IMG/VR virus record: IMGVR_UViG_2925891887_000007
Length of the DNA stretch: 46,375 nucleotides
Direction: 5' to 3' (one strand)
DNA from: a virus
Taxonomy: Duplodnaviria > Heunggongvirae > Uroviricota > Caudoviricetes
Below, piece by piece: positions 1-44,580 of this stretch. The notes under the pieces were generated by a model. That model was not told the origin of the DNA. It was given only the letters and a program-made list of their open reading frames with translations, and searched no databases. Every line of letters starts with the position of its first letter. The first letter of the stretch is position 1. The position numbers and the translations under genes are program-made.

Positions 1-1
1 A

Positions 2-1297
2 TTAATTTTTCATTGCTTCGTTATGGGGCATGGTTGGGGCAAACTCGCTTAACTGTGTATTTAACAAAGCTACCTGTGCATTATTGTTTTCAGACATCCA
101 TTTTCCGTATACCTGAAATACCATTTGCGCATCTGCATGGCCCATCTGGTTTGCTATAAATGCCGGGTTAGCACCAGCTGTCAGCGACCAGCAGGCATAA
201 GTATGTCTCGACTGATATGATTTTCGATGGCGGAGTCCGGCACGTTTTATCGCTGCGTCCCACATCTGCCTTATTGAGTCAACGGTAAAATGGTCACCAT
301 AATTTTTTACTCTCGCTGACACTTCAGGTTGAAAAACAAAGGTGCATTTTTGTTTTTCTGTTCTGCCATACTCTCTGAGGTGAACATCAATGATATGCTC
401 TTTGCTCAGTCTCGTTAATGTCATCTGACTCCGGAGAGCGTCGATTGCTGGCTTAATAAGATGAATGACCCGATTGGTTCCTGCCTGTGTTTTTGGTACC
501 GTGAAACGGTCTTTTGCTAAATTTCTCCTGATCATCATTGTTCCATTTTTCAGATCTATGTCCTCCCATCCAAGTGCACACAGCTCACCAGGGCGAACGC
601 CAGTATAAACAGAAACACACCATAAATTTTTTGCTTGCTGATTTCTGCACGCATCGATAAGACGGATAAATTCCTCCCGCGAAAGAGGATCCGGAATGCT
701 TCTTGATTCCTTTAATGGCGAGATCCCCTTAAACGGATTATCTGCCAGGTAACCGTTATCAACACCAAACTGGAACACGGCGTTAAGATTTGTCATGTAA
801 TTATTTACAGTTACAGCCGATCTCCCTGGTTGTGTAACAATATAGTTACTTTTGGGGATCTGGTATCCAGTCAGTAGCTCTTTACGAACCTCCAGTAATT
901 TTTCTTTATTAATCGATGAGGCAAGATTTTTTTCACCGATTATGCTCAGGATATTTTTGATGACGGCACGGTATGTGTTGAGTGATGTTTTGGCGACTTC
1001 AGTTTCTTTCAGTGCCAGAAATTTTTCAGCCAGTTCTTTTATGGTTAAATCTTGTCGGGCCTCACCAAATTTTTCCAGATTGCGTGAGGAGGGAAACTGT
1101 TTTGCATAGTCGAAAACACCAGTTTTTATTGCGTAACAAACAGAGGCGCGTAGTTCACCTGCAACGCGCCTGTTTTTTGCTGTGTCAGGAACCCCCAGAT
1201 TTTCCCTGACTCTTACGCCTTTATAAACAAACCAGATACGTAATTTCCCTCCATGGTTTTCCACGCCTGTCGGATATTTCATTTCAACTTCTCTCAT
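2..1297 (-). CDS. int: Phage integrase, tyrosine recombinase family (alternative start at 1282)
   Basis: 431-aa ORF with recombinase-like C-terminal region (HxxR, terminal Tyr region); located at the prophage edge next to an excisionase-like gene. Confidence 0.88.
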   Translation of the reverse strand: MREVEMKYPTGVENHGGKLRIWFVYKGVRVRENLGVPDTAKNRRVAGELRASVCYAIKTGVFDYAKQFPSSRNLEKFGEARQDLTIKELAEKFLALKETEVAKTSLNTYRAVIKNILSIIGEKNLASSINKEKLLEVRKELLTGYQIPKSNYIVTQPGRSAVTVNNYMTNLNAVFQFGVDNGYLADNPFKGISPLKESRSIPDPLSREEFIRLIDACRNQQAKNLWCVSVYTGVRPGELCALGWEDIDLKNGTMMIRRNLAKDRFTVPKTQAGTNRVIHLIKPAIDALRSQMTLTRLSKEHIIDVHLREYGRTEKQKCTFVFQPEVSARVKNYGDHFTVDSIRQMWDAAIKRAGLRHRKSYQSRHTYACWSLTAGANPAFIANQMGHADAQMVFQVYGKWMSENNNAQVALLNTQLSEFAPTMPHNEAMKN

Positions 1298-1316
1298 TAG
1301 TTAGTGTGGCTTTTAG

Positions 1317-1568
1317 TCAAGTAAGATGACGTCTTGGTCTCGCTGATGCCTGGCGCTCAATCCAGCGATCAATTTCTTCTAGGTTGTAAAAGCATGGACT
1401 GTTATCCCATGGCATACCGTCATGAGCGACATGCTTATATTCCCTTCCTTCCATAAACGATTTTTCCCGGGCCTTTTTTAACGTACCTTTTTTTATTCCT
1501 TTCAGCGCAATTAACTGCTCTTCGGATACCCATTTGCCGGGAGAGACAATCATGATTACTTCGCTCAT
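1317..1568 (-). CDS. xis: Excisionase-like small DNA-binding protein
   Basis: 83-aa basic protein immediately upstream of int on the same strand; typical int-xis pairing. Confidence 0.65.
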   Translation of the reverse strand: MSEVIMIVSPGKWVSEEQLIALKGIKKGTLKKAREKSFMEGREYKHVAHDGMPWDNSPCFYNLEEIDRWIERQASARPRRHLT

Positions 1569-1640
1569 CGATTTCTTTATCTCTTACATCAGACGAGCGC
1601 CGGTTGCAGAATACCAGTCACAACCGGCGACAGTTGAACA

Positions 1641-4112
1641 TTAAGAATCAGCCTGACTCGGGATCAGTTTTTGCCAGATAACTGAAACGTATTTTGCCTG
1701 GTAACGGGCGTCATCAAGTGCATTATGGCGCTCACCTTCGAATGGAATAGCCGTTCTGGCATCGAAGTCTATGGCTTTCCCCAGCTCAACGATTGTGCGT
1801 ACATCGCGATCGTTGTAGTAACGCCACGGGCAGGGGATCCCCTGCCGTTCGTATGAACGGCGCAAAATCGTGTTGTCGAAGTTGGCTCCATTTCCCCAAA
1901 CCTGAACAAAAAATTCACCGGAGTTTTCGTCGATAAATTCTCGCAATTGTAACAGTGCATCATCTAACGGGATTTCATCGGTCATAATGGCAGATTGCGC
2001 TTCGCGTGATTGCTTAAGCCACCATTTAATGGTGTCCCGATCAATGACTCCGCCAGCAGTTTCCAGATCGATAGTCTTACTAAATTCCGGTCCCATATCT
2101 CCGGTTTGCGGATCGAAAAATATTGCACCTATTGAGATGATCGGGGCATCAGGATTTTTTCCCATGGTTTCAAGGTCGATCATTAGATGGTCACACGTCC
2201 TGCTGGTGGATGTGATTCCGTGATGACCGTTCACCTTAATTGGGTGATCTGCCGTCTCGCCAGTTTCATTATCGCTATTGTGATGCTGATTGCCGCCAGT
2301 GTTCTCCTTGTGTGGATGTTCAGCGCCTTCCATTTCCTCCGGATCATCTTCCTGAACTTCAACCTGATACTCTTCATCGAATGTTTCTTGGTATGTTGCG
2401 TCGCCCATCACCGCGCCACAATCAGGGCAGTTGCCGCCGCCGGTCTGACCGCAGGCGGTGCAGACTTTTTCCACTTCCTGTTGCGCTACTGGTTCAGGCT
2501 GTTTCGTTTCTGGCTCGTTTTGTAACGCATTTGGACTGTTTTGTTCCGCTTTTTGGTAGTTCCGTTCCGATTCATGCTGGTTCTGGTTCACAGAATCGCG
2601 GGTCTGGAGCCCCTTAACCCATTTCGGATCATTCGGGTCACTAATCCCTTCAACAAATTCACCACGTGATGCAGCAAGCAACTTATCGGCGTCAGGCTGG
2701 CTGATATTGGCTGCCTGCATAATTTTGTTTACTTCGTCAGCGGTAACTTTTATCGGCTCTGGTTGTTCTGAATCTTCAGCGGTATCTACATTTTGCGGTA
2801 AGCCCGTGTATGTGCCATTTTTTCGGGCAAAATATTCTTCTTTTGTGATTTCAGTGGCGCCAGCAGCCAGTGCCTTATCCAGACCAGAGAGTTTGTTTGC
2901 GCGACCGTATTTTTCTCCGTCCTTATCTGCGAAGAGGAAATAGAACGGCCCCTCACGCTCTACAGATGGTTCAGCTTCCGGCGCGGTTTCATTTTTTGGG
3001 ATATCAGATACCTCAGTTTCCACTGCATCAGTTTGTGTTTCTGATGACTGGAGAACATCAACAGTGCCCAGGTCTGTTTCTTCATTCTCAAACACGCCCT
3101 TTGTCGTCAGGTATTCGCAGATATATTTGTTCAGTGCTACGGGATCTTTGTGAATGTCGATCGGACGCTCACGGACAAGGCCAAAAATAGTTTGGCGGTC
3201 GTAGCGAAGGGCATCAGGCTGTTTGCGCATTGATGCCGAGATACGCTTCCAGTCTTCGCGGTCGTTGTCGATAACTTCTTTTTTTGCCCAGCGATGGATG
3301 CTGCCGTCAATGTTTCCGGCATCCACATCACCAGGCCAGAGAGCGTAGGCCAGTTCGTCATCCAGTGTTTTCCATGTCTGCTTGTATTCGCGATGAATGG
3401 CAGCAATGACCGGGCTGATTTTTCCTGTTGAATTTTCAGTGTACTGTTGATTGGCTCTGGCGCGGGCGAGATCAACAACAGACGTGTATTTTCCGGTTTC
3501 CTTGCGTTCACCTTCGCGACGTTTTTTCCAGATGCGCATCTCTGCCTGAATTTCGGGCCATTTAGCACCAGGAATACATTTATGCTTAACCCACCCAATG
3601 GCGTGCAACTTAAGCTCCGGATACATGGCGTTAACTTCTGGCATTTTCATCAACGCTTCAACGATATGTCCGTCGAATGTTGCCATGTCTTCCTGCAACA
3701 ATTCCTGTGCGCTAATAACCATATCAACGGTGATGTTTTCACATGTGTCGAACTTAACCATGACAGCGTTCTGTACTTCAGGGGCCAGCTTGTCAAAAGT
3801 GACGTTCATCGGATCGGATTCAGTCTCAACCGGGACAAAAGAAGCAGACTCCTCATCCCAGCGGTTTTCCTGCATATATTCAGCATCCCATGAATCGAGG
3901 GCAGGGCGGGGTATGCCAGGTTTATCCTCGCAGACAATAAATTTATAAGCGCAGTCCTGAGCAGCCGGATAATGTTCCAGGAATTGCCAGTGAAATTTTG
4001 CTCGAGCACGGCGTTCGTCGCCAGCTTCAATGGCTGTGGCTACAGCCACAGCGCCTTCTTCCCTTGTTGCCAGTTCGTCAGGAATAGCGGCGCAAATAAA
4101 GACTTTACTCAT
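1641..4112 (-). CDS. Large early protein with C-terminal DEDDh (DnaQ-like) 3'-5' exonuclease domain and a central CxxC-x-CxxC zinc ribbon
   Basis: C-terminus has DLETMG...WGNGANFD...HNALDDA exonuclease motifs; start chosen at MSKVF (GAGGT RBS), since the table start at 4148 is a TTG. Confidence 0.75.
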   Translation of the reverse strand: MSKVFICAAIPDELATREEGAVAVATAIEAGDERRARAKFHWQFLEHYPAAQDCAYKFIVCEDKPGIPRPALDSWDAEYMQENRWDEESASFVPVETESDPMNVTFDKLAPEVQNAVMVKFDTCENITVDMVISAQELLQEDMATFDGHIVEALMKMPEVNAMYPELKLHAIGWVKHKCIPGAKWPEIQAEMRIWKKRREGERKETGKYTSVVDLARARANQQYTENSTGKISPVIAAIHREYKQTWKTLDDELAYALWPGDVDAGNIDGSIHRWAKKEVIDNDREDWKRISASMRKQPDALRYDRQTIFGLVRERPIDIHKDPVALNKYICEYLTTKGVFENEETDLGTVDVLQSSETQTDAVETEVSDIPKNETAPEAEPSVEREGPFYFLFADKDGEKYGRANKLSGLDKALAAGATEITKEEYFARKNGTYTGLPQNVDTAEDSEQPEPIKVTADEVNKIMQAANISQPDADKLLAASRGEFVEGISDPNDPKWVKGLQTRDSVNQNQHESERNYQKAEQNSPNALQNEPETKQPEPVAQQEVEKVCTACGQTGGGNCPDCGAVMGDATYQETFDEEYQVEVQEDDPEEMEGAEHPHKENTGGNQHHNSDNETGETADHPIKVNGHHGITSTSRTCDHLMIDLETMGKNPDAPIISIGAIFFDPQTGDMGPEFSKTIDLETAGGVIDRDTIKWWLKQSREAQSAIMTDEIPLDDALLQLREFIDENSGEFFVQVWGNGANFDNTILRRSYERQGIPCPWRYYNDRDVRTIVELGKAIDFDARTAIPFEGERHNALDDARYQAKYVSVIWQKLIPSQADS

Positions 4113-4204
4113 TTGTTTTAACCTCATGACAGATTTAAGGATGAACAAATCCCTGCCATTGCTGGCATATAAGAATGAAACCGGATATTTATTACGGAAC
4201 TGTT

Positions 4205-4396
4205 TTAAAGACCTGCCGGGATTTCGATATTATCCTGGTGAATAACTTTATCGACCGGGTAACAGTTACCGGGAATTTTCTGTTCGGTTGCTGCAGTCAT
4301 ACACTCCTGCATTGTCCTGTGAACACTGACTGCAATATCAACTGGCTCTCCGGAAACAAGAAAAACTGTCAGAACAAGCACAAATGCTGAATTCAT
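4205..4396 (-). CDS. ydfD: YdfD-like small protein with N-terminal hydrophobic segment
   Basis: 63 aa; ATGA start/stop overlap with upstream dicB-like ORF; position and size match the Qin dicB operon. Confidence 0.6.
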   Translation of the reverse strand: MNSAFVLVLTVFLVSGEPVDIAVSVHRTMQECMTAATEQKIPGNCYPVDKVIHQDNIEIPAGL

Positions 4397-4581
4397 TGTG
4401 CACATCCTTTTGGCATCAGACGTAAACGAGCCAGCATTGAAACAATGCATATTTTATTTAATAGCTCCCGTTCTTGTTTTCTCTTGTTAATGGCATCTTC
4501 AGTAAATACTGGGTTACTGATAGTGACACCAATTTCAAAACAACCTTCAGACGTATTAACGTTTGGTAATAACGTTTTCAT
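4393..4581 (-). CDS. dicB: DicB-like cell division inhibitor
   Basis: 62-aa ORF MKTLLPNVNTSEGCFEIGVTISNPVF... matching remembered DicB; GAGGA RBS. Confidence 0.75.
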   Translation of the reverse strand: MKTLLPNVNTSEGCFEIGVTISNPVFTEDAINKRKQERELLNKICIVSMLARLRLMPKGCAQ

Positions 4582-4755
4582 TATCGCGTCCTCAACAATG
4601 AATTTTGTGATGCAGTGCCTGGTGCCTCCAGGTGACGTTAACCAGTTAACAATTAACGCCGGATACAGAGAATCCACCCATAACACTGTTTTTGGTTTTA
4701 ACTGTTCCGCGTGCGCTCAGCCGCATTCACCACATCACAAAATTCACTTTAAAAA

Positions 4756-4808
4756 GGGCGGCAGAGCAGTCACGGAGTAAAACTGATACCGCCAAACGTC
4801 ACCAGAAA
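4756..4808 (-). ncRNA. dicF: DicF small RNA
   Basis: Minus-strand sequence TTTCTGGTGACGTTTGGCGGTATCAGTTTTACTCCGTGACTGCTCTGCCGCCC followed by a T-run; lies between ydfC-like and dicB-like genes as in Qin. Confidence 0.7.
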
Positions 4809-5148
4809 ATTGATAACAGAGGGCGTTGCAGCGGGGTTGTCACTTAAGCGTATGGTCAACCTGACAACCCGGTGTCCTCAACGGGGAAGGAATAACCCCG
4901 CCATACTTACCGCCGCGCCATTTCGCGGGTTGCCACAACCGGAAGCGCACGGTCGACGAAAATTTAACGACAGGCTATCTATGAACCAGCTACCTCGCCG
5001 TGCGCTTTCGCGTTATGGTCTGACTTTTCAGGGAAATATCCTTTCAGTAAACTGTCAGTTCCGGATGCGCACCCGTGTCCGGCGCACGCACTCCACCTCA
5101 CCCGTGGAGAACTCCTTAATTACTAACCTTAGCTTTGTTGATTAGCTA

Positions 5149-5367
5149 CTAACGCGGGTATGTAATCATTCTGGCAATGCTTAATGCCGCTGCTTTTTCC
5201 AGATTGGTGATATCCTGCTCCAGAGCGGACAGATTTTCAGCCTGCTTAGCCCTGGCTTCATTAGCCCATTTCAGATCCTGCGCTGCATTAATTTTCTGGC
5301 GCATCCACTCATAAAGTTCATCATCGGTATAGTCTGGCGCGATGATGACGGGTTCTCGTTTCTGCAT
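5149..5367 (-). CDS. ydfC: YdfC-like small protein
   Basis: 72-aa ORF with GAGGA RBS; size and order match the dicB operon. Confidence 0.65.
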   Translation of the reverse strand: MQKREPVIIAPDYTDDELYEWMRQKINAAQDLKWANEARAKQAENLSALEQDITNLEKAAALSIARMITYPR

Positions 5368-5397
5368 ACTGATTCCTCGCGGTGCTGTTTCGCTTAT

Positions 5398-5525
5398 CAG
5401 CCGTTAGATTTTGCCGAACTGGAAAGCGCCTGTTTAAACTCACTGAAGCTGAGAGCTTCTTCGCCTTCGGCAAGGCCTTCGAAGTATTCTTCGTAAGCCT
5501 TTTCCATGATTGTGTCGAAATCCAT
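5398..5525 (-). CDS. ydfB: YdfB-like small protein (42 aa, not in ORF track)
   Basis: ATG at 5523-5525 preceded by AGGTGA; translates MDFDTIMEKAYEEYFEGLAEGEEALSFSEFKQALSSSAKSNG; tightly packed between the ydfA- and ydfC-like genes. Confidence 0.55.
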
Positions 5526-5526
5526 A

Positions 5527-5682
5527 TCACTCACCTGAGTTTCTTTCCAGCCAGCGACGGGCACCATTTTCGGTTTTAAACGTTTTGCTTTTGGTATACG
5601 TCATTGCGGTGAACGTGCCGTCCTGGTTTGGAAACACGCCGTACACCAGAGATTCGTTGTTGCCAAGATCGATAGTATCCAT
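5527..5682 (-). CDS. ydfA: YdfA-like small protein (51 aa)
   Basis: Internal ATG at 5680-5682 with GAGGT RBS; first gene of the leftward operon downstream of a putative operator. Confidence 0.6.
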   Translation of the reverse strand: MDTIDLGNNESLVYGVFPNQDGTFTAMTYTKSKTFKTENGARRWLERNSGE

Positions 5683-5795
5683 GCTGACCTCATTTCCCCT
5701 TAACGCTGGGGTAGCGGAACTGTTTGCGGAGAACACCGTGCGGTGTGTTGATGGAGGTAATTTAGTTTTCTCATTATTTTTCGTCAAGGTTTTTT

Positions 5796-5813
5796 GATGA
5801 GAAAACTCAAGTG
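5796..5813. promoter_or_regulatory. Putative left operator (TGAGAAAACTCA inverted repeat)
   Basis: Same 12-mer also found in the repressor/cro intergenic region. Confidence 0.4.
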
Positions 5814-5874: not shown

Positions 5875-6282
5875 TTATTGATGCTTGTTGCGTTTGCGAG
5901 CCTCTAATAGCTCGGTGAACAGGCGATTAAAATTCTCAACGCGGGCGCGGAGTTCGCTGAGTTGTGCTTGTTGCTCTGATTTAGGAAGTGCGCGATACAA
6001 ACGCAGCATCTCTAACTCATCTTCCGATAAGTCTAGGGTACTATCGAGTGAAACAGGGGGAGCTGGTGTTTTGTCCTCGTCGCCAAACAGTATCCAGGTT
6101 GGTGAACATTGCAATACCTCGGCGAGGCGATGCAAATTTTGCCCGCGCGGGGCTGTATGGTCACTTTCCCATAATGAAATTGATGAGCCAGATACGCCAG
6201 CAGCTTTGCTTAAACCGTTTTGACTTAAGCCTACCTGCTTACGTCTTTCTCTAATGCGTTGACCTAAAGTTTTCTCGTTCAT
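5875..6282 (-). CDS. dicA: Phage repressor, HTH XRE family, DicA-like
   Basis: 135 aa from MNEKTLGQRIRERRK; HTH motif; VLQCSPTWILFGDEDK segment matches remembered DicA; divergent from a cro-like gene. Confidence 0.85.
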   Translation of the reverse strand: MNEKTLGQRIRERRKQVGLSQNGLSKAAGVSGSSISLWESDHTAPRGQNLHRLAEVLQCSPTWILFGDEDKTPAPPVSLDSTLDLSEDELEMLRLYRALPKSEQQAQLSELRARVENFNRLFTELLEARKRNKHQ

Positions 6283-6359
6283 ATTTAGATATCTTAATAA
6301 TCCTTGACTTGAGATTCCTTGAGTGATTAGCATTGAGAAAACTCAATATTGGAGGTGCG
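6283..6359. promoter_or_regulatory. Divergent promoter/operator region of the immunity switch
   Basis: 77-bp intergenic between divergent repressor and cro-like genes with repeated TTGAG half-sites and TTGAGAAAACTCAA. Confidence 0.5.
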
Positions 6360-6587
6360 ATGTTTAAATCAGACGTAATTAATTTTTACGGTACGAAAGC
6401 CAAAGTAGCGAAAGCTGCTGGCGTTGACCCATCTGCTGTTTCTCAATGGCAAGAGCTAGTTCCTGAAGGTCGCGCGATGCGTCTACAGGAGGCATCTGGC
6501 GGCGAGCTTCTGTATGATCCCAAGGTTTATGACGAATATCGTAAGACGAAGCGGGCGGGGCGGTTGAACAATGAAAATCACTCCTGA
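6360..6587 (+). CDS. dicC: Cro-like DNA-binding protein (DicC/YdaS family)
   Basis: 75 aa from ATG at 6360 preceded by GGAGGT; divergent from repressor. Confidence 0.75.
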   Translation: MFKSDVINFYGTKAKVAKAAGVDPSAVSQWQELVPEGRAMRLQEASGGELLYDPKVYDEYRKTKRAGRLNNENHS

Positions 6588-7092
6588 ACAGGCTCGTGAG
6601 GCTCTGGATGCCTGGATATGTCGACCAGGAATGACACAGGAGCAGGCGACGATATTAATCACTGAAGCATTCTGGGCTTTGAAAGAGCGCCCGAACATCG
6701 ATGTTCAGCGTGTCACAGATGAAGGTGGCGCGGTTGATCAGCGAGCGCTTGGCGTTAATCGAGTGAAGATATTCGAACGCTGGAAGGCTATCGACACCAG
6801 GGATAAGCGTGAAAAGTTCACGGCGCTAGTGCCTGCAATTATGGAGGCTATCCGGATTAATGATTTCAGGTTGTATCGTGAAATTAGTGACGGAAAAAGC
6901 ATCACGTACATGATCGCCGGGTTAAACAAAGAATATGGCGATGTGGTGGAGTCCGGACTGCTTTTTGCTGATCCTGCCGTAGTGGATCGTGAAACTGACG
7001 AACTTATAGAAAAAGCAATTGCTTTCAAACTTGCGTATCGACAGCAATACCAACAAAAAGCTGGATGGAATTATGAGCCTTCTTTTTGCTGA
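6571..7092 (+). CDS. Hypothetical early protein in the cII position (possibly YdaT-like)
   Basis: 173-aa ORF overlapping cro-like stop; position only, family not confidently recognised. Confidence 0.55.
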   Translation: MKITPEQAREALDAWICRPGMTQEQATILITEAFWALKERPNIDVQRVTDEGGAVDQRALGVNRVKIFERWKAIDTRDKREKFTALVPAIMEAIRINDFRLYREISDGKSITYMIAGLNKEYGDVVESGLLFADPAVVDRETDELIEKAIAFKLAYRQQYQQKAGWNYEPSFC

Positions 7093-8753: not shown

Positions 8754-9653
8754 ATGATTGATCCACTTATTAGAAACTTACAGAGTGATATTGCACTACT
8801 CCAGCTTTATATCGCGCAACGCAAACAGGCAGGCTTTCATGACATGGAAAGAATAATTGAGTCATTGACCATCTTTATGTTTCGCGCGCTGAAAATGGGT
8901 GAACTGGTAAACATGAATCAGATTAAAGTTAATTTTCCCGCCATTGATTTAGCTGATAATAAAAACATGATAGCAGTTCAAGTTACTACGAATGCAAGTC
9001 CAGCAAAAATTAAAAAAACTATCGAATCTTTTGAGGAAGCAAATGAAATAGGAGAGAGTCTGAAAGATAAATACTCTACTTTATATATTTTTGGTTTTTG
9101 TAAAGCCTCAAGATACCTAACTCCAAGTTATTGTAAAATAATCGACCCCAGCTATTTCGTGAATGAACTTTGCGATAAAGCAGATGAAGATATGGTCCAG
9201 GATATGATTGACGCCATTCGACGCCATCATGATTATACATCATTACATCCATGGAGTGATAAAGATTCACTCGAAATTATACTCAATATTATTAATCGCA
9301 ATGCAATAAAACATCGGATGAGTTGCGAAGGCAGTCTGTCTGATATGCTCACTGGTTTAAAAGAAATTAATGAAGTAATTACAAAAGGAACAATTCAACG
9401 TAAGCAACGTTCAAAATCGATATCTGACTTCAAAGATCAAAGCATGGTGAAATTTATGAGAGGTGTAATGGATGATTTGTCTGTTATTCAAGCCATAGTG
9501 AACAAATCTAAAGTTAACCAAGGTGATATGGTTTATATAAGCCATGAAGATATGATTAATATTGATAAATTAAAAGCTAAAATAGCAAGTGATTCATCAG
9601 AGATTGCAAGGCTAAATAATATTGATATAACACTAAATGTTGTTGATTTATAA
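8754..9653 (+). CDS. Hypothetical 299-aa protein in low-GC cargo island
   Basis: Long ORF in markedly AT-rich DNA; no catalytic motif recognised by eye. Confidence 0.7.
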   Translation: MIDPLIRNLQSDIALLQLYIAQRKQAGFHDMERIIESLTIFMFRALKMGELVNMNQIKVNFPAIDLADNKNMIAVQVTTNASPAKIKKTIESFEEANEIGESLKDKYSTLYIFGFCKASRYLTPSYCKIIDPSYFVNELCDKADEDMVQDMIDAIRRHHDYTSLHPWSDKDSLEIILNIINRNAIKHRMSCEGSLSDMLTGLKEINEVITKGTIQRKQRSKSISDFKDQSMVKFMRGVMDDLSVIQAIVNKSKVNQGDMVYISHEDMINIDKLKAKIASDSSEIARLNNIDITLNVVDL

Positions 9654-9967
9654 TTGTCGATTTAGCAAAACAGAGAATGCTTTGAAAGTTTCACCGAGAA
9701 ATATTTATTGTGAACCTCCTTATTGTTTATCGACTTTTACTCTCCGCTCATTGCAGTACTGTCGGAGAAGGCTACTATGTACAAGAAGCAGCTAACATAA
9801 GCGAGCATCACTATTGATATTAGGAAGAGTATATAAAAACTTCATGCTGAACCTTACAAAAGTAGGTAAACCGGCAATGGCCTAAGTGGCAGGGTCATGT
9901 TGATCCGGCACTGCCGAGCTAATAATTAACAAGCAAATCACTCTTTCTAATAATTTGTTGAAATAAA

Positions 9968-10627
9968 CTAAATATGTATATGTTTACCAACAACCACATA
10001 TGAACTACCTGCTTTGCTCCATGATTTTATTATTTCTAAATTATTATCTGAGCATATTTTACTTACAGTATCCACATCTAATAAACCATAGTAGAAAGCA
10101 TTACGAGAGTTTTGGTATATATACCCATGCAAATGTTTAATACCGCTCTCGTACCTCTTGAAATAAGAACTTTTGTATTGATTGACAATCAGTGCTTCAC
10201 CATCACTCTTTAATAATTCTCTAATCGCACTGAGGACTTTGTGAATTGTGGATTCACATGGAATTGCGGAAAGCACGTTTGCGCAAAGTATGAAATCATA
10301 ATGATTTGTTATTTTATCTATATTTTCATAAGAAACAATATTAGCATTCTTATAGTTATTTATCACGTAATCTGGAATCGTGGTTTGTACACCTCTGATA
10401 ATTTGCACTCTTTCTAGTTGTCTTCTGGAATCTAAAAATGTCACAGTTTCAAATTTATTTACTAATTGTTCTGAATATCTAAGTTTTCCACATCCAAAAT
10501 CAAGGGCATTGTCATTTTTATTAGTGCTTTCAATCTGTTTACAGAGATAGTTAGATGGCATAGTGTGCGGTTTCGCTGCATTTTCTGAACGTATGTTTAT
10601 TCCATTTATTTTGTAATTCAAAATCAA
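9968..10627 (-). CDS. Small class I SAM-dependent methyltransferase-like protein
   Basis: LDFGCGKL (motif I), acidic residue after beta2 (VTFLDS), DFILCANVL, LLKSDGEALIV; very AT-rich; 7 nt downstream of the membrane protein gene. Confidence 0.65.
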   Translation of the reverse strand: MILNYKINGINIRSENAAKPHTMPSNYLCKQIESTNKNDNALDFGCGKLRYSEQLVNKFETVTFLDSRRQLERVQIIRGVQTTIPDYVINNYKNANIVSYENIDKITNHYDFILCANVLSAIPCESTIHKVLSAIRELLKSDGEALIVNQYKSSYFKRYESGIKHLHGYIYQNSRNAFYYGLLDVDTVSKICSDNNLEIIKSWSKAGSSYVVVGKHIHI

Positions 10628-10633
10628 CCTCGT

Positions 10634-11341
10634 TTAAAAAATATTGTTATTGTTAAAGAATTCTTTTATTTTGCTATCAGGTATTTGTCTTACTTGGCTT
10701 TCTGTTCTTGGTTTAACTGATGCTATGAAAATAAGGAAGTCAAATGCGACAAGAGAAATAATCCACAACCAAAGATTAATTAAAGAGCCAGTAACAGAGA
10801 ATATATTTGTTAATTTGGCGATACTTATTATTAAAATAGTAACAAATGCGATTACTGTATGTTCAAAGAAAACCCAAAAGTAATAAACTTTGTTCCAGAA
10901 AAGTTCAACGTAATGTTTGTCTTTTAACTCTTTAACTTCTGGGTAATACAGTTTACTCATTACCTTGTGAGATTCATCAGTAGTTAATTTTCTCGTAACG
11001 CCTGCAATTTTTGCTAATGGTTTAATAATTAAATGACTATCCCACATCTTCCTTATTCCAATAATTTTTGCTACATTATTATGTAGATCTAAAGCTCCAC
11101 TAATTACTGACCAAAAAACTGAAGATGCAATTGGTAATATGCCAAAGGTTAATATCCATTTAATAAATTCCTCGTAGTCTTTAACGGGGGGGATATACTT
11201 GGCATTAATGCCAACCAATGGCATGTAGCCATAAATGACTAATGATAGGTAAAATATAAATGTAGTAATAAAAGTCGCCTTATGGAGCATAGGCAACATT
11301 TCATTATAACTCTTTGGTGGTTCTAACATTTTACTCTCCAA
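10634..11341 (-). CDS. Integral membrane protein (about 4 TM helices)
   Basis: 235 aa with four long hydrophobic segments; first gene of a two-gene minus-strand operon in the low-GC island. Confidence 0.65.
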   Translation of the reverse strand: MESKMLEPPKSYNEMLPMLHKATFITTFIFYLSLVIYGYMPLVGINAKYIPPVKDYEEFIKWILTFGILPIASSVFWSVISGALDLHNNVAKIIGIRKMWDSHLIIKPLAKIAGVTRKLTTDESHKVMSKLYYPEVKELKDKHYVELFWNKVYYFWVFFEHTVIAFVTILIISIAKLTNIFSVTGSLINLWLWIISLVAFDFLIFIASVKPRTESQVRQIPDSKIKEFFNNNNIF

Positions 11342-12071
11342 ACATTCAAAAAAAAGCTAATCTTCTATAATAACGAAATTCAGCTGGCACAATTAAAGAT
11401 TAATTGCCACCAATTTCTTGATTTTATAATTTTATCTAAATGTTTTTGATTAATCTAGTCCTAAAAGAAACCTACTGCATAAATATTTATGCTGATGACC
11501 CACTCCCTGTTCGTTAACACATAGCAACGTTAGTAATGCATCCTAAGTGATCAATATTTTTGCTAGCTTCATCTGCTCGCTCAAAGGGAACTATAATGTT
11601 GGCTTGCGTGTGACTTGGCATGTTTAAAGAAGTGCTGGTGGTGACTGGTTGCTGTTTTCCATTTCCACAGAACAAAATCATAGAAACTATACCCAGTAGT
11701 TGTATTGAATCACTGACGAGACAGCCTCATATTTATCAGGACTGGTGTACGTCCAATACAGGAGGTTGTGGTGCTGGTTCTCAAATGTGCGCTGGCTATT
11801 GCTGCTGTAATGGCAATTTATTGTCTTGCTGTTGTTCTTATGGATCACCTTTCTGATTGATTTCATATTGGCGAGGTAACGGTAGTTAAGTAGAATTGCT
11901 GCGGGTGCTTGAGGCTATCTGCCTCGGGCATCAACACCAAAGGCAGATAGAGAAAAGCCCCAGTTAACATTACGCGTCCGGCAAGACGCTTAACATTAAT
12001 CTGAGGCCATATCTATGCTCTACACACGTAGGTTAGCCTCTTACGTGCCGAAAGGCAAGGAGAAGCAGGCT

Positions 12072-12227
12072 ATGAAGCAGCAAAAGGCGATGCTAATCGC
12101 CCTGATCGTCATCTGTTTAACCGTCATAGTGACGGCACTGGTAACGAGGAAAGACCTCTGCGAGGTACGAATCCGAACCGGTCAGACGGAGGTCGCTGTC
12201 TTCACAGCTTACGAACCTGAGGAGTAA
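12072..12227 (+). CDS. hokD: Hok family type I toxin
   Basis: MKQQKAMLIALIVICLTVIVTALVTRKDLCEVRIRTGQTEVAVFTAYEPEE; AAGGAGAAG RBS; in-frame upstream extension resembles a mok-like leader. Confidence 0.9.
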   Translation: MKQQKAMLIALIVICLTVIVTALVTRKDLCEVRIRTGQTEVAVFTAYEPEE

Positions 12228-12295
12228 GAGACCCGGCGAGGGAGAAATCCCTCGCCACCTCTGATGTGGCAGGCATCCTCAACGCACCCGCACTT

Positions 12296-12322
12296 AACCC
12301 GCTTCGGCGGGTTTTTGTTTTT
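12296..12322 (+). terminator. Rho-independent terminator after hok
   Basis: AACCCGCTTCGGCGGGTTTTTGTTTTT hairpin plus T-run. Confidence 0.6.
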
Positions 12323-12443
12323 ATTTTCAACGCGTTTGAAGTTCTGGACGGTGCCGGAATAGAATCAAAAATACTTAAGTAGCGCGCAGGGATAAGAGGG
12401 ATGGTCCCTTAAAGGGGAGAGCTAATTATCCGGAAGGATTCTG

Positions 12444-12695
12444 ATGATGAACATCGAAGAACTGCGTAAAATTTTTTGTGAAGATGGCCTCTATGCTGTG
12501 TGCGTTGAAAATGGAAATATTGTTAGTCATTACCGCATTGTGTGTTTGCAAAAAAATGGGGCTGCGTTAATTAATTTTGTGGATGCCCGAGTGACGGACG
12601 GATTTATCTTGCGCGACGGTGAGTTTGTCACTTCATTACAGGCATTGAAAGAGATCGGAATAAAAGCTGGCTTTTCTGCTTTTTCAGAAGAATAA
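12444..12695 (+). CDS. Hypothetical small protein (83 aa)
   Basis: ORF with plausible start in the hok-DUF968 region. Confidence 0.55.
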   Translation: MMNIEELRKIFCEDGLYAVCVENGNIVSHYRIVCLQKNGAALINFVDARVTDGFILRDGEFVTSLQALKEIGIKAGFSAFSEE

Positions 12696-12761
12696 ACTCA
12701 TCTACAATCTTGCGCGGGGCTGAACTCCCGCTGAGTAACACCGTGCCACCGGAGAAAACCG

Positions 12762-13040
12762 ATGGCACGCAACGCAAAATATTACAATCATGATAATTCG
12801 ACCGTTCTTGCCCACACGCACGAGCGGTATTCTCATGCATTTAAGTCAGACTGGTACCAGCATCCCCCATGCACTGAAGAACAGGCCGAATGGCTCATTC
12901 AGTGTTACCGCAGGCGCGGATGCGAGGTTAAAAAAGCCCTTAGCCTCGACTACCGTCACTGGATAATCTCCGTCAGGCTCCCTTACTCCGAACGGCCACC
13001 GCGTCCGTCCCGCACATTCCAGCAACGTATCTGGAGGTAA
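12762..13040 (+). CDS. Hypothetical small protein (92 aa)
   Basis: ORF ending 2 nt before the DUF968 gene. Confidence 0.45.
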   Translation: MARNAKYYNHDNSTVLAHTHERYSHAFKSDWYQHPPCTEEQAEWLIQCYRRRGCEVKKALSLDYRHWIISVRLPYSERPPRPSRTFQQRIWR

Positions 13041-13041
13041 C

Positions 13042-14091
13042 GTGCGGGTATTACTTCGACCTGTTCTGGTACCGGAACTCGGGCTGGTGATCGTTAAGCC
13101 GGGCCGTGAATCCATGCCGGTATTCCACAATACCCGGGTACTGGTGGAGCCGGAACCGAAAAGCATGCGTAATCTGTCGTCCGGGGTCGTTCCTGCCGTT
13201 CGCCAGCCGCTGGCGGAGGATAAATCATTACTGCCATTTTTCAGCGACGAACGAGTGATTCGTGCTGCTGGTGGCGCTGGCGCATTGTCTGACTGGTTAC
13301 TGCGCCATGTTAAATCCTGCCAGTGGCCACACGGCGATTATCACCACAGTGAAACCGTCATTCACCGTTATGGTACCGGCGCAATGGTGTTGTGCTGGCA
13401 CTGCGACAACCAGCTGCGCGACCAGACCTCCGAATCACTCGGGCAACTTGCTCACCAAAACCTGTCTGCATGGATGATTGACGTCATACTCCATGCAATG
13501 AATGGCTCGCAGGAACGGGAATTATCGCTGGCTGAATTATCCTGGTGGGCGGTCCGCAATCAGGTGGCGGACGCGCTACCGGAAGCGGTATTACGTCGTT
13601 CGCTGGGGTTGCGTGCGGAAAAAATCCGCTCAATGTACCGTGAAAGCGACATCGTACCGGGAGAGCAGACCGCCACCAGCATACTGAAGCAGCGCACAAA
13701 AAATCTTGCACTGTTGCCTCACGCCCACCAGGAACAACACCCACTACAGGAAAAGACGGTGGTAAGCATTGCCGTTGATCCTGAGTCTCCGGAATCTTTC
13801 ATGAAACGACCTAAACGTCGCCGCTGGGTTAACGAGAAATACACACGCTGGGTGAAGACACAGCCGTGTGCGTGTTGTGGTAAGCCAGCCGACGATCCCC
13901 ATCACCTGATTGGTCATGGTCAGGGCGGAATGGGGACAAAATCTCACGATATTTTCACGCTACCGCTGTGTCGGGAGCATCACAACGAGCTTCATGCGGA
14001 TCCGCTGGCGTTCGAAGAAAAGCATGGTTCTCAGGTTGATTTAATTTTTCGTTTTCTTGATCACGCCTTTGCAACTGGCGTGCTTGGGTAA
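13042..14091 (+). CDS. DUF968 (YdfU-like) protein with C-terminal HNH-like Cys/His motif
   Basis: 349 aa; CACCGK...HHLIGHGQGG...CREHHNELH. Confidence 0.8.
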   Translation: MRVLLRPVLVPELGLVIVKPGRESMPVFHNTRVLVEPEPKSMRNLSSGVVPAVRQPLAEDKSLLPFFSDERVIRAAGGAGALSDWLLRHVKSCQWPHGDYHHSETVIHRYGTGAMVLCWHCDNQLRDQTSESLGQLAHQNLSAWMIDVILHAMNGSQERELSLAELSWWAVRNQVADALPEAVLRRSLGLRAEKIRSMYRESDIVPGEQTATSILKQRTKNLALLPHAHQEQHPLQEKTVVSIAVDPESPESFMKRPKRRRWVNEKYTRWVKTQPCACCGKPADDPHHLIGHGQGGMGTKSHDIFTLPLCREHHNELHADPLAFEEKHGSQVDLIFRFLDHAFATGVLG

Positions 14092-15439: not shown

Positions 15440-15515
15440 GGTCCTTTAGCTCAGTGGTGAGAGCGAGCGACTCATAATCGCCAGGTCGCTGGTTCAAATC
15501 CAGCAAGGGCCACCA
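15440..15515 (+). tRNA. tRNA with CAT anticodon (Ile2/Met type)
   Basis: Cloverleaf with acceptor GGTCCTT/AAGGGCC, D-arm TAGCTCAGTGG, anticodon loop CTCATAA, T-arm GGTTCAAATCC, 3' ACCA. Confidence 0.85.
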
Positions 15516-15620: not shown

Positions 15621-15697
15621 GCGTTGTTAGCTCAGCCGGACAGAGCAATTGCCTTCTAAGCAATCGGTCACTGGTTCGAATCCAGTACAGCGCGCCA
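15621..15697 (+). tRNA. tRNA-Arg (TCT anticodon)
   Basis: Acceptor GCGTTGT/ACAGCGC, D-arm TAGCTCAGCCGG, anticodon loop CTTCTAA, T-arm GGTTCGAATCC, GCCA end. Confidence 0.85.
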
Positions 15698-16161: not shown

Positions 16162-16635
16162 ATACATATCTGGATTATCACCTGTTACGGTAAAAAGTGA
16201 TTGCTTACTGTTTTTGTGAATGGCATTGCAGCAGCCGGATAATGTCAGTGCTGGCTGACGGTGTGCTGGTGGCGGGTGTGGTGGTTGTTGCTTTCCCGTT
16301 GCTGAAAAAGAAAACGCCAGACTGTTAGCCGGGTATCAGTTAGCGGGAGAAATTTTTAAATACTTCACAATTCAGGCGGTTGACTGTTCTCTGGTTTGCG
16401 GGGAGTTTGTTAAAAGAAACTGGCATGGTGAATCCCCCTGTGCGGAGGGGCAATCAGCGAGTAGGTATATGGGATAATCGCGGATTCAGGTGCTGGTACT
16501 GAATTCACCGGGAGGCACCCGGCACCATGCACTTCAATAGATTCTCTCCACATTATGGATATTCTTTCAGAATATCCCACGCAGACTTTGTGTAAATGTT
16601 AACAAATGTGCGTTTTATTTGATCTGATTCGCTGT

Positions 16636-16694: not shown

Positions 16695-17123
16695 ATGGGT
16701 TTTCGTAGCGCATCAATTCTTACGTTGATTATTAGTGGGATTATTATCGGGTGCACTGATGCTGTATCGACAAATTATCATGACCGTACATCATATTACT
16801 CCGATAAAGCAATAGAGACACAGTATGTGAGTTCATCTGAACGTACTTCTGATGTTAGTGAGGATATCCGTCTGTATGCCCATCAAATCAAGAGCGCCAT
16901 CGAAAAACAGTTCGGGGATGCGAGTAAGTATTCAGGAAAAGAGTGTACACTGAGAATGCATATGGCCCCGAATGGCCTTCTACTGGAGGTTAAAAGAGAA
17001 AGTGGAGACCTCGATTTATGTCGTGAAGCGATGAATGCGATAAAGAATGCTGATATACCTGCCCCCCCTTCGCCGGAAGTATATAAAGTATTTCAAAATG
17101 GGGTGCTGGATTTTAAACCCTGA
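16695..17123 (+). CDS. Lipoprotein with TolA C-terminal (domain III)-like domain
   Basis: Signal peptide plus lipobox (IIGC); C-terminal YAHQIKSAIEKQF...YSGKECTLRMHMAPNGLLLEVKRESGDLDLC...IPAPPSPEVYKVFQNGVLDFKP closely resembles remembered E. coli TolA C-terminus. Confidence 0.8.
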   Translation: MGFRSASILTLIISGIIIGCTDAVSTNYHDRTSYYSDKAIETQYVSSSERTSDVSEDIRLYAHQIKSAIEKQFGDASKYSGKECTLRMHMAPNGLLLEVKRESGDLDLCREAMNAIKNADIPAPPSPEVYKVFQNGVLDFKP

Positions 17124-17273: not shown

Positions 17274-17669
17274 GTGGGATTAAAGAAAATCGTTATGTTG
17301 ACTTTTTGGGTCGGTTTTGTTGCGGGATGCACACCTTTACACCCTTCAGATTGCCACAAAACTACTGCTACAGGTAGTTGCAGTTCAGGACGCTGGGATG
17401 ATCAGGATGAATGGGGGGCGCAAGCGCGGGGAATCAGAGCTGCAATTAATGCCAAACTTGATGAGCCGCATAACTGGAAAGGGAAAATATGCAGGTTGCA
17501 TATGGAATTCTCTCAGGATGGCACGGCGTTAAAAATATCTACCAGTAACGGTGATAAAGCCTATTGCGAAGCGATAAAGTCCGCAGCTCATAAAGCCAAA
17601 TTTCCGGCCTTCAACAATCCGAAAGTCTACAGAGATTTTCAGAAATCTGGCTTTGACATGCGAGGTTAG
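17274..17669 (+). CDS. Paralogous lipoprotein with divergent TolA-C-like domain
   Basis: GTG start with GAGGAG RBS; lipobox VAGC; WKGKICRLHMEFSQDGTALKISTSNGDKAYCEAIKSAAHKAKFPAFNNPKVYRDF. Confidence 0.75.
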   Translation: MGLKKIVMLTFWVGFVAGCTPLHPSDCHKTTATGSCSSGRWDDQDEWGAQARGIRAAINAKLDEPHNWKGKICRLHMEFSQDGTALKISTSNGDKAYCEAIKSAAHKAKFPAFNNPKVYRDFQKSGFDMRG

Positions 17670-43999: not shown

Positions 44000-44580
44000 T
44001 GGCATTCAGAATGAGTGAACAACCACGGACCATAAAAATTTATAATCTGCTGGCCGGAACTAATGAATTTATTGGTGAAGGTGACGCATATATTCCGCCT
44101 CATACAGGTCTGCCAGCAAACAGTACCGATATTGCACCGCCAGATATTCCTGCTGGCTTTGTGGCTGTTTTCAACAGTGATGAGGCATCGTGGCATCTCG
44201 TTGAAGATCATCGGGGAAAAACCGTCTATGACGTGGCTTCCGGCGACGCGTTATTTATTTCTGAACTTGGCTCGTTACCGGAAAATGTCACCTGGTTATC
44301 GCCGGAAGGGGAATATCAGAAGTGGAACGGCACAGCCTGGGTGAAGGATACGGAAGCAGAAAAACTGTTCCGGATCCGGGAGGCGGAAGAAACAAAAAAC
44401 AACCTGATGCAGGTAGCCAGTGAGCATATTGCGCCGCTTCAGGATGCTGCAGATCTGGAAATTGCAACGGAGGAAGAAATCTCGTTGCTGGAAGCCTGGA
44501 AGAAGTATCGGGTGTTGCTGAACCGTGTTAATACAACAACTGCACCGGATATTGAATGGCCAGTAGCACCTATAGGGTAA
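43999..44580 (+). CDS. tfa: Tail fibre assembly protein Tfa
   Basis: [58 protein letters not shown] matches lambda Tfa. Confidence 0.92.

Follow-up and report, generated by a model that had tools for sequence, protein, structure and literature searches.

The leftward early arm of this prophage is, as judged by nucleotide identity to the E. coli K-12 sequence, a complete Qin-type dicBF operon that includes the small RNA DicF, and it constitutes the PL-type early-left operon of a lambdoid prophage. We consider it probable that dicBF serves here as an early-left operon with a Kil-like role, in a full-length lambdoid prophage that belongs with Qin, mEp460_ev081 and Tritos. Publications or annotated public records already cover the operon together with its RNA, proteins and regulators, as well as its spread among E. 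coli prophages, and the finding is therefore real but ordinary. Throughout, the window refers to the whole stretch of DNA that was analysed (46,375 nucleotides), and the coordinates of its features are collected in Table 1.

Table 1. Features of the operon, its control region and the neighbouring prophage genes, with positions in the window.
Feature	Position	Strand	Sequence or evidence
Tyrosine integrase (426 aa), full length	2-1282	minus	K-12 intQ is a remnant
Excisionase (83 aa)	1317-1568	minus	absent from K-12 Qin
Exonuclease (823 aa), full length	1641-4112	minus	open frame identical to WP_000048328.1
ydfD (63 aa, DUF1482)	4205-4396	minus	192/192 nt identical to K-12 b1576; PF07358, 91.1 bits
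dicB (62 aa), cell-division inhibitor	4393-4581	minus	189/189 nt identical to K-12 b1575; PF05358, 136.8 bits
DicF sRNA (53 nt)	4756-4808	minus	53/53 nt identical to K-12 b1574; Rfam RF00039, 76.7 bits
ydfC (72 aa)	5149-5367	minus	219/219 nt identical to K-12 b1573
ydfB (42 aa)	5397-5525	minus	129/129 nt identical to K-12 b1572
ydfA (51 aa, DUF1391)	5527-5682	minus	156/156 nt identical to K-12 b1571; PF07151, 98.5 bits
dicBp-equivalent (PL-type) candidate promoter	5759-5787	minus	-35 TTGACG, 17-nt spacer, -10 TAAATT; consensus scan
Operator candidate, OL-proximal	5761-5773		TGAGAAAACTAAA, 1 mismatch; overlaps spacer and -10
Operator candidate, OL-distal	5797-5810		TTGAGTTTTCTCAT / TGAGAAAACTCAA; just upstream of -35; inverted pair with 5761-5774
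DicA-family repressor (135 aa)	5875-6282	minus	HTH_3, 56.7 bits; no peptidase domain
Rightward (PR-type) candidate promoter	6304-6333		TTGACT-18-TAGCAT; consensus scan
Operator candidate at the rightward (PR-type) promoter	6334-6346		exact TGAGAAAACTCAA; directly after -10
DicC-like Cro (75 aa)	6360-6587	plus	P22_Cro PF14549, 59.3 bits
rem (83 aa), homologue of the Qin antirepressor	12444-12695	plus	78/83 residues (94%) identical to K-12 Rem
IS1	44829-45596		downstream of tail-fibre assembly gene

The original prediction had matched open reading frames of 51, 42, 72, 62 and 63 amino acids, together with a DicF-like sequence of 53 nucleotides, to ydfA-ydfB-ydfC-dicF-dicB-ydfD. All five frames appear in the list of open reading frames at the predicted places on the minus strand, and alignment of these small frames and of the 53-nucleotide segment to K-12 MG1655 gave no mismatch in any of them (0 in each of the coding sequences of ydfA, ydfB, ydfC, dicB and ydfD). 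The match is thus borne out at 100% nucleotide identity for all five coding sequences and for DicF, and substantial divergence from K-12 was not seen. The six features follow one another in this order on one strand with the spacing of K-12 dicBF, and a candidate repressor-controlled promoter lies upstream of them. The ydfD and dicB genes overlap by 4 nucleotides. The encoded DicB protein is identical to K-12 DicB at 62 of 62 residues, and its match to the Pfam family spans positions 1-62 of 62 (gathering score 27, E 1.9e-40). YdfD, the product of the last gene, is a reported lysis protein. Over the 2408 nucleotides from 3346 to 5753 the window differs from K-12 at two positions only. One of these substitutions, at 5728, falls within the 5' UTR, which is otherwise conserved with K-12 from about +1, and the other, at 5000, lies about 55 nucleotides upstream of the expected 5' end of the 190-nucleotide RNase III product.

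On the strand shared by ydfC and dicB, DicF occupies the gap between these two genes. Its covariance-model match extends over model positions 1-52 of 52 (E 2.6e-15), with a score that compares with a gathering score of 48, and the predicted 53-nucleotide sequence is thereby confirmed as DicF. The 3' stem-loop, which is followed by CUUUUU, was predicted both as the MFE and as the centroid structure and agrees with the consensus structure of the family. The fold-energy z-score of -0.93 is not significant by itself, so the DicF call rests on the covariance model and on identity to K-12. In a terminator scan the DicF hairpin went uncalled; the scan returned only a weak 5-bp hairpin at 4154-4167 on the minus strand, in the gap between ydfD and the exonuclease gene, and the number of sites did not exceed that found in shuffled sequences.

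Beyond ydfD, the arm continues through the exonuclease, excisionase and integrase genes. The exonuclease carries a C-terminal Rv2179c-like 3'-5' exonuclease domain (226.5 bits in Pfam), and K-12 ydfE is an IS2-truncated N-terminal remnant of this protein, the homology ending at position 3346 of the window, where K-12 has IS2E. Several phage records label the 823-residue protein as RecE or exonuclease VIII, a label that we rejected because Pfam found only a DnaQ-like domain of the Rv2179c type. The segment from 1 to 1161 is 99.4% identical to the intQ pseudogene remnant. Read-through from the operon into exo-xis-int is uncertain, and transcripts reaching ydfE have gone undetected in K-12 studies.

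The 46-kb window represents a full-length lambdoid prophage that shares 99.78% identity across 44.8 kb with a prophage in NZ_AP022107.1 (strain WP5-S17-ESBL-11), which sits between rspB and a truncated ydfJ, that is, at the Qin locus. The window runs from one base before the int stop codon to approximately 700 bp short of ydfJ and holds no flanking host DNA. Integrase, excisionase, exonuclease, immunity, replication, Q, lysis, terminase, portal, capsid, tail and tail-fibre genes are all open, as are all 52 of the coding sequences annotated in the NZ_AP022107.1 prophage, each with at most 9 amino acid differences. The integrase, excisionase, lysis, packaging and tail genes that had been predicted are thus present as open reading frames, and the claim of apparent intactness holds in that no gene is visibly broken. 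Phages mEp460 and Ayreon match the structural half at 97-98% identity. The prediction had also contrasted this element with the defective Qin of K-12. That contrast stands as far as the open gene set is concerned, but the situation is not unusual, since the full int-xis-exo-dicBF arm (at least 80% covered) occurs in 2192 of 5426 complete E. coli genomes, or about 40%, and phages carry it as well.

Alignment to K-12 Qin is patchy, with matches at 1-1161, 3346-5753, 6457-6850 and 12058-14091 (90%) and further matches in parts of the lysis region (86-91%) and in the tail fibre region (95%). We therefore ruled out that the element is simply an undeleted Qin, as homology outside the left arm is patchy and amounts to 86-95%; from these alignments the element is best described as a mosaic relative of Qin.

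The same early-left arrangement of int-xis-exonuclease-ydfD-dicB-DicF is found in the lambdoid phages Tritos (prophage 3 of AIEC LF82), PhiR42_1, mEp460_ev081 and HannyBb, in which the operon is 95-99.9% identical to that of the window. Tritos, PhiR42_1 and mEp460_ev081 carry DicF and dicB at the same position, with DicF scores of 72.5-76.7 bits in these three phages, which were the ones scanned. In mEp460_ev081 the ydfA-C part is partly replaced (69% coverage). Any single phage record covers 39-84% of each half of the window, which is typical lambdoid mosaicism. Tritos has been reported to form plaques, and its virions have been imaged (PMC9928086). A statement from 2016 that no sequenced phage genome has DicB or DicF (PMC5069750) is outdated by Tritos, PhiR42_1 and mEp460_ev081. 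Phage genomes carry dicBF, and at least one of these phages is plaque-forming, which corrects that statement and weakens the argument that the operon survives only through domestication of defective prophages.

These observations bear on an alternative that we regard as improbable, namely that the prophage is non-inducible or non-productive despite its open frames and that dicBF is kept as a domesticated module of benefit to the host. As argued for K-12, cells that survive would gain from such a module an occasional arrest of division, a rewired metabolism and resistance to phages. The operon is matched in 4756 of the 5426 complete genomes, often in several copies, and its retention in defective prophages has been argued for previously (PMC5069750). 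The operon and its flanks are also far closer to K-12 (2 differences in 2408 nucleotides) than the other shared parts are (86-95%), but recent recombination at a shared chromosomal locus would explain this local identity equally well. The att sites lie outside the window and an IS1 is inserted near its right end, although this IS1 is intergenic by the annotated record. All 52 coding sequences are open, and near-identical early and late modules are present in isolated phages, including the plaque-forming Tritos, which speaks against this alternative.

Homology to K-12 starts at 5753, and the operator region upstream of about +1 cannot be aligned to K-12. Adding the 190-nucleotide product to the published RNase III site (position 813) puts the DicF 3' end approximately 1003 nucleotides from +1, so that +1 would fall near 5752-5758; the transcript lengths of 1,146 and 1,608 nucleotides given in PMC10448788 are irreconcilable with the coordinates and were excluded from this estimate. 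The hexamers of the dicBp-equivalent candidate promoter stand in the same register as TTGACC/TAATCT of K-12, upstream of the conserved transcribed region. This promoter is a consensus match only (9/12), and the 2.5-kb region that was scanned held 4 promoter-like sites against a shuffle expectation of 3.7, so there was no excess. The exact 13-mer TGAGAAAACTCAA occurs twice in 46 kb, at 5798-5810 and at 6334-6346, and when up to one mismatch is allowed there are three matches in the window, all of them in the immunity region. Clear operator copies thus number two or three in all; K-12 has been described with three per side.

A search of the window for the LexA box CTGT-N8-ACAG returned no good site, and when all sites of the looser form CTG-N10-CAG were listed, none fell between 8172 and 13848, the stretch holding rem. 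LexA (SOS) control of rem or of the operon is consequently unsupported, in agreement with K-12, where dicBp does not respond to mitomycin C (PMC10448788).

The gene for a short HTH repressor lies divergent from a P22_Cro-family gene, an arrangement shared with the K-12 DicA/DicC (P22 immC-like) module. The repressor is identical to K-12 DicA at 75 of 135 residues (56%), with 26 of 59 identical in the N-terminal HTH part and 49 of 78 in the C-terminal part, and the repressors of the phages HannyBb and mEp460_ev081 match it at 99.3% identity. The predicted DicA-like repressor is thus a member of the DicA family, but with this identity and its different operators it is not DicA itself. The Cro protein is identical to K-12 DicC at 53 of 75 residues (71%); its C-terminal half is identical and its N-terminal half differs. 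Both the operators and the HTH part of the repressor differ from those of K-12, which speaks against the same immunity specificity as K-12 DicA. Given its different operators and a repressor that shares only 56% of its residues with DicA, the element probably combines heteroimmunity to K-12 Qin with an identical transcript. Relative to K-12, the immunity functions (operators, HTH part of the repressor and that of Cro) have been exchanged up to no more than a few bases from the transcription start.

In K-12, Rem relieves DicA repression of dicBp (PMC10448788). We found Rem in 15 E. coli phage records, exactly those with a DicA-family repressor of full length; they include HannyBb and mEp460_ev081, whose Rem is 92.8% identical to that of the window. 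It is absent from Tritos, which has dicBF and, unlike this element, CI plus ImmA/IrrE-type immunity. We tentatively suggest, as a possibility that we hold to be somewhat doubtful, that Rem is a family-wide antirepressor binding the conserved C-terminal half of short repressors and that dicBF is a working lytic module of viable phages. The support for this suggestion is purely correlative, Rem being 93-94% conserved where the repressors are 56-57% identical. If it is true, heteroimmune Qin-like prophages may cross-induce each other's dicBF operons and lytic programmes, and dicBF would be a Kil-like block with ManYZ-based exclusion in viable phages, not the relic confined to defective prophages that was proposed in 2016. 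The prophages covered by such cross-induction are this type, the K-12/PhiR42_1 type, PPompW and a Rac-labelled record. The immunity swap near the transcription start, together with the conserved Rem, makes this element a natural partner for testing heteroimmune cross-talk within the DicA family.

All functional steps proposed for the operon are carried over from studies of identical sequences in K-12 (PMC10448788, PMC5069750, PMC6832061). Repressor bound to the operators would keep the operon off in the lysogen. Once the antirepressor Rem, or a DicC-dependent spontaneous flip of the bistable switch, had inactivated the repressor, a polycistronic transcript would start at approximately 5752-5758. 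Part of this transcript would end at the DicF hairpin and be trimmed by RNases III and E to the 53-nucleotide DicF, which with Hfq would repress translation of ftsZ and manX. Read-through would yield DicB and YdfD. DicB would take MinC to the septum, such that FtsZ rings are blocked, and would also inhibit ManYZ, the inner-membrane channel for DNA injection by lambda-like phages. With the same operators on both arms, we infer that derepression coincides with lytic induction. The primary role of dicBF would then be that of a counterpart of lambda Kil, blocking division and excluding competing phages during lytic growth, and not that of a stand-alone defence of a surviving lysogen. Because the operator 13-mer is present at both promoters, so that derepression would also be lytic, a Kil-like block with exclusion is the more natural reading.

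The original prediction had suggested that the operon may act as an exclusion module, and by analogy with K-12 this idea is plausible, as the identical K-12 DicB brings about a MinC- and ZipA-dependent division block and inhibits ManYZ (PMC6832061). It is unlikely, in our estimate, that selection has acted mainly on superinfection exclusion in the lysogen through DicB (ManYZ) and DicF (manX mRNA), with low-level, stationary-phase or subpopulation expression guarding lysogens from lambda-like phages without killing them. Following transient induction in K-12, the identical DicB cuts plating of lambda-vir to 0.016-0.04 through ManYZ; however, among nine phages in K-12, protection was seen against lambda and in part against T3 (EOP 0.14), and the other seven were not affected (PMC6832061). 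DicF accumulates in stationary phase and approximately 1% of K-12 cells switch dicBp on spontaneously, but K-12 cells that do so with dicBF intact form no colonies (PMC10448788). In the present element, the same operator sequence stands at both promoters, so switching would also start the lytic genes. A PADLOC search was uninformative on exclusion, since it had no model matching DicB or YdfD and matched the exonuclease only to a generic DEDDh model. A third alternative would put the likeness to dicBF down to chance, to low complexity or to a misreading of small open reading frames, which are common (94 of at least 30 amino acids in the first 9 kb). It has no point counted in its favour and is refuted by six K-12 features that recur here in unchanged order and spacing at 100% nucleotide identity, and by the Rfam (E 2.6e-15) and Pfam (E 1.9e-40 for DicB) matches.

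The reading that we favour, a PL-type early-left operon with a Kil-like role, can be set beside several known systems. K-12 Qin shares with this element the same six features, order and spacing, with 100% nucleotide identity in the coding sequences and DicF, and the same integrase type, and the near-identical record of this element lies in the same rspB/ydfJ neighbourhood. In K-12 Qin, however, the exonuclease gene is cut by IS2, xis is absent along with the N-terminal part of int, and the replication-to-tail region is deleted or patchily related (86-95%), whereas all of these are present and open here. The two also differ in the promoter-operator segment, in the repressor and in the N-terminal half of Cro. 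The comparison provides a clean example of how K-12 Qin, deleted, IS2-scarred and mosaic, is related to full-length prophages that occupy this locus.

Lambda Kil and the product of Rac kilR are small inhibitors of FtsZ-dependent division that are expressed on induction. The lambda PL operon with kil, and likewise Rac kilR, have the same position and logic as dicBF, being early-left, repressor-controlled and running towards xis and int. Relative to lambda kil, dicBF relies on a pair of inhibitors, one an sRNA that acts on ftsZ mRNA and the other a peptide that targets MinC, and the dicBF arm has no N antiterminator gene, unlike the lambda PL operon. The DicA-type repressor is short and, unlike in the lambda system, is not RecA-cleavable (PMC10448788). 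Gifsy antirepressors are LexA-controlled, whereas no LexA box lies near rem here, but Gifsy-type control likewise combines a short repressor without an autocleavage domain with a small antirepressor whose gene lies at another place in the prophage (PMC10448788).

We compared the operon feature by feature with the Qin region of Escherichia coli K-12 MG1655. The five open reading frames lie on the minus strand exactly at the coordinates and with the sizes of the original prediction, and each aligns to its K-12 counterpart (ydfA, ydfB, ydfC, dicB or ydfD) without a nucleotide mismatch; Pfam independently picks out three of them, DicB, YdfA and YdfD. The segment predicted to be DicF-like, which sits between ydfC and dicB, matches the DicF family over the whole Rfam model (76.7 bits, gathering score 48; E 2.6e-15), and neither it nor dicB departs from the K-12 sequence. 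Throughout the 2.4 kb that surround these genes there are two differences from K-12, one at position 5728 in the ydfA 5' UTR and the other at position 5000, in the spacer separating ydfC from dicF, some 55 nt upstream of the point where the 190-nt DicF precursor made by RNase III is expected to start. On these alignments the match to dicBF is no chance resemblance and the identification is confirmed; the operon itself was already known.

Features of the window and their likeness to known sequences
Feature	Position	Strand	Likeness or content
intQ remnant	1-1161		99.4% to K-12
823-aa protein	1641-4112	-	DnaQ-like exonuclease domain
ydfE remnant to ydfA	3346-5753		99.9% to K-12
ydfD, 63 aa	4205-4396	-	0 nt mismatches to K-12; Pfam DUF1482
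dicB, 62 aa	4393-4581	-	0 nt mismatches to K-12; Pfam DicB, 136.8 bits
DicF, 53 nt	4756-4808	-	53/53 identical to K-12; Rfam RF00039
ydfC, 72 aa	5149-5367	-	0 nt mismatches to K-12
ydfB, 42 aa	5397-5525	-	0 nt mismatches to K-12
ydfA, 51 aa	5527-5682	-	0 nt mismatches to K-12; Pfam DUF1391
Leftward promoter-like site	5787-5759	-	TTGACG, 17 nt, TAAATT
Operator candidate, 1 mismatch to TGAGAAAACTCAA	5761-5773		overlaps leftward spacer and -10
Operator candidate TGAGAAAACTCAA, exact	5798-5810		just upstream of leftward -35
DicA-family repressor, 135 aa	5875-6282	-	75/135 identical to DicA; HTH domains only
Rightward promoter-like site	6304-6333	+	TTGACT, 18 nt, TAGCAT; before Cro-type gene
Operator candidate TGAGAAAACTCAA, exact	6334-6346		directly after rightward -10
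Cro-type protein	6360-6587	+	53/75 identical to DicC
dicC C-terminal part and ydfX	6457-6850		98% to K-12
YdaT_toxin-family protein, 173 aa	6571-7092	+	26.1 bits
Moron-like island	8754-11329		SMEK-domain protein, methyltransferase
hok/sok	11903-12227		Rfam sok, 114 bits
hokD-rem-ydfU	12058-14091		90% to K-12
Rem	12444-12695	+	78/83 identical to K-12 Rem
Two tRNA genes	15440-15515, 15621-15697		
STnc100 match	16394-16584		114 bits
TolA C-terminal-domain protein	16695-17123	+	82.6 bits
TolA C-terminal-domain protein	17295-17669	+	53.1 bits
Lysis genes	parts of lysis region		86-91% to K-12
stfQ/tfaQ	parts of 43313-44563		95% to K-12
Tail-fibre assembly gene	43999-44580		
Rfam IS009 match	44342-44540	+	225 bits
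IS1, 768 bp	44829-45596	-	Pfam IS1 transposase, 261 bits

Of 5426 complete E. coli genomes, 4756 contain matches to the 1.7-kb operon region, at a median of two and up to ten places per genome; coverage of the region reaches 80% or more in 2056. For the full 5.76-kb arm (int, xis, exonuclease and dicBF), 2192 complete E. coli genomes show coverage of at least 80%, which makes the "intact" left arm a common arrangement more than it makes the truncated K-12 form a special one. Sixty records of the phage collection match the operon region. The operon of PhiR42_1 is 99.9% identical to that of the window, and mEp460_ev081 and HannyBb carry dicB together with a repressor of the window type (99.3%) and Rem; the presence of both dicB and DicF was verified directly for mEp460_ev081, an infant-gut phage by its description. 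The annotation of Tritos (prophage 3 of AIEC LF82) names both DicF and DicB, with exonuclease, xis and int next in line. The DicF scores of Tritos, PhiR42_1 and mEp460_ev081 lie at 72.5-76.7 bits. Tritos is induced spontaneously, forms plaques on MG1655 and has had its virions imaged (PMC9928086). A 2016 study found no DicB or DicF in ~2,000 phage genomes and suggested that the operon is retained in defective prophages (PMC5069750). That study, and reportedly the 1994 work that it cites, had already demonstrated dicF in many prophages, large CP-933 elements among them. The 2016 statement on phages is overturned by current records, and the evidence that overturns it was already public.

Over 44.8 kb the window shares 99.78% identity with a prophage of E. 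coli WP5-S17-ESBL-11 (NZ_AP022107.1) located between rspB and a truncated ydfJ, the same neighbourhood as K-12 Qin. All 52 PGAP-annotated coding sequences of that prophage are open in the window, most of them identical, which bears out at the reading-frame level that the prophage is apparently intact; because its ends fall a single base ahead of the stop codon of int and some 700 bp short of ydfJ, the window shows no att site. The left arm encodes integrase, excisionase, the 823-aa exonuclease and the dicBF genes. Next come the repressor, the Cro-type regulator and, in the cII position, a YdaT-family protein, then a replication protein and DUF977, then the SMEK-domain and methyltransferase island, and then hokD/sok, rem, DUF968, RusA, a Q-type antiterminator and two tRNAs. 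Two TolA-C-domain proteins precede the lysis genes for holin, lysozyme and Rz. Terminase, portal, protease-capsid fusion, lambda-like tail, J, Lom, tail fibre and Tfa complete the set. The late genes of the window are 97-98% identical to those of phages mEp460 and Ayreon. Downstream of the tail-fibre assembly gene is a complete intergenic IS1 with InsA and InsB reading frames, bounded by the 9-bp target duplication GAGTGCCCG and absent from the otherwise 99.8%-identical NZ_AP022107.1 prophage.

Several further genes were observed outside the operon. The moron-like island, between the replication genes and hok/sok, encodes a 299-aa SMEK-domain protein with a PADLOC match to the N-terminal part of the Aga_REase-PNTD model (E 1e-20), a converging 217-aa SAM-dependent methyltransferase and a 231-aa protein that gave no family match; it may be defence or modification cargo. 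HokD of the type I toxin-antitoxin pair is 51/51 identical to that of K-12, where relBE adjoins hokD; the window lacks relBE there because K-12 homology begins only at 12058. Following Q are a tRNA with anticodon CAT (Met according to ARAGORN, Ile according to PGAP in the near-identical record) and tRNA-Arg(TCT), then the STnc100 sRNA-family match. The two separate small TolA-domain proteins are encoded downstream of Q and the tRNAs, in the position that toxin genes occupy in Stx phages; they could hamper the entry of colicins or phages that depend on Tol. The IS009 "RNA family" match lies wholly within the tail-fibre assembly gene and is probably merely conserved tfa coding sequence.

K-12 Qin aligns to the window in patches only, which rules out that it is a mere cut-down copy of this prophage. 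Positions 1162-3345, comprising the N-terminal part of int, xis and the C-terminal two-thirds of the exonuclease, are missing in K-12, where IS2E sits. By these alignments, K-12 Qin is a deleted, mosaic relative of a window-type prophage. K-12 ydfE is the N-terminal remnant of the 823-aa protein, whose sole detected domain is a C-terminal DnaQ-like Rv2179c-type 3'-5' exonuclease (226.5 bits), the first ~640 residues giving no other domain. Related records annotate this protein as "exonuclease" or "exodeoxyribonuclease VIII"; with the DnaQ-like domain alone found, the RecE-type label looks wrong.

A consensus scan identified a leftward promoter-like site upstream of ydfA, and the K-12 promoter (TTGACC, 17 nt, TAATCT) aligns with it in exactly the same register. 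Upstream the two sequences are unalignable, whereas from position 5753 onwards they are identical, the two differences aside. RNase III cuts the K-12 transcript between positions 813 and 814, and the 190-nt product ends at the DicF 3' end (PMC10448788). Counting about 1003 nt upstream from 4756 would put the +1 at ~5752-5758, so that the homology boundary would lie only a few bases from where transcription begins. This comparison indicates that the dicBF transcript is conserved and the promoter-operator segment exchanged between the window and K-12. The 13-mer TGAGAAAACTCAA, a near-palindrome (TTGAG-N4-CTCAA), has exactly two copies in the 46 kb, and all matches with at most one mismatch are confined to one 600-bp region, the chance expectation by our own calculation being ~0.06. 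These copies probably serve as operators; at the corresponding positions the K-12 sequence is different.

The likeness of the repressor, Cro-type protein and Rem to DicA, DicC and the antirepressor Rem places this switch in the DicA/DicC family. The predicted DicA-like repressor is indeed a member of that family, but only 26 of 59 residues are identical to DicA in its N-terminal DNA-binding part, against 49 of 78 in its C-terminal part; together with the differing operators, this suggests that the window element is very probably heteroimmune to K-12 Qin. The Cro-type protein likewise differs from DicC in its N-terminal half. The YdaT_toxin-family gene overlaps the end of the Cro-type gene, as in racR-ydaS-ydaT of Rac.

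The E. coli phage records that hold Rem are precisely those that hold the full-length 135-aa DicA-family repressor; they number 15 and are not independent of one another: PhiR42_1, HannyBb, mEp460_ev081, eleven PPompW-containing records and one Rac-labelled fragment. Their repressors, which include several HTH variants, are 53-57% or 99% identical to that of the window. Tritos, in contrast, has dicBF with CI/ImmA-type immunity and without Rem. Conservation of Rem is 93-94% across elements in which the repressors share 56-57% identity, most of it in the C-terminal halves. This correlation fits a tie between Rem and the DicA-type repressor family, possibly via the conserved C-terminal half; if Rem does act in this way, cross-induction between heteroimmune elements could occur.

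Every functional step for the window operon is transferred from work on the identical K-12 sequences. There, DicA represses the operon promoter dicBp, expression rises 22-fold upon dicA deletion, and Rem overproduction derepresses dicBp 165-fold; dicBp is also spontaneously on in ~1% of cells, dependent on DicC and independent of RecA and Rem, and is induced by urea and heat, not by mitomycin C (PMC10448788). DicF represses translation of ftsZ, xylR and pykA (PMC5069750) and likewise of manXYZ (PMC10448788). DicB with MinC blocks division, and DicB inhibits ManYZ, reducing lambda-vir plating to 0.016-0.04 (PMC6832061). One alternative is that leaky or stationary-phase dicBF expression protects lysogens. 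We favor a lytic role: because the same candidate operator lies on the leftward and rightward promoters, loss of the repressor would switch on the dicBF arm jointly with the replication and late arm. The exclusion module originally proposed to act upon derepression is compatible with this role, although the cell that it protects would be one already infected and committed, not a lysogen that survives. The window dicBF operon would be best viewed as the counterpart of the lambda PL operon with kil, stopping host division during lytic development, with DicB perhaps also shutting the ManYZ door against competing phages.
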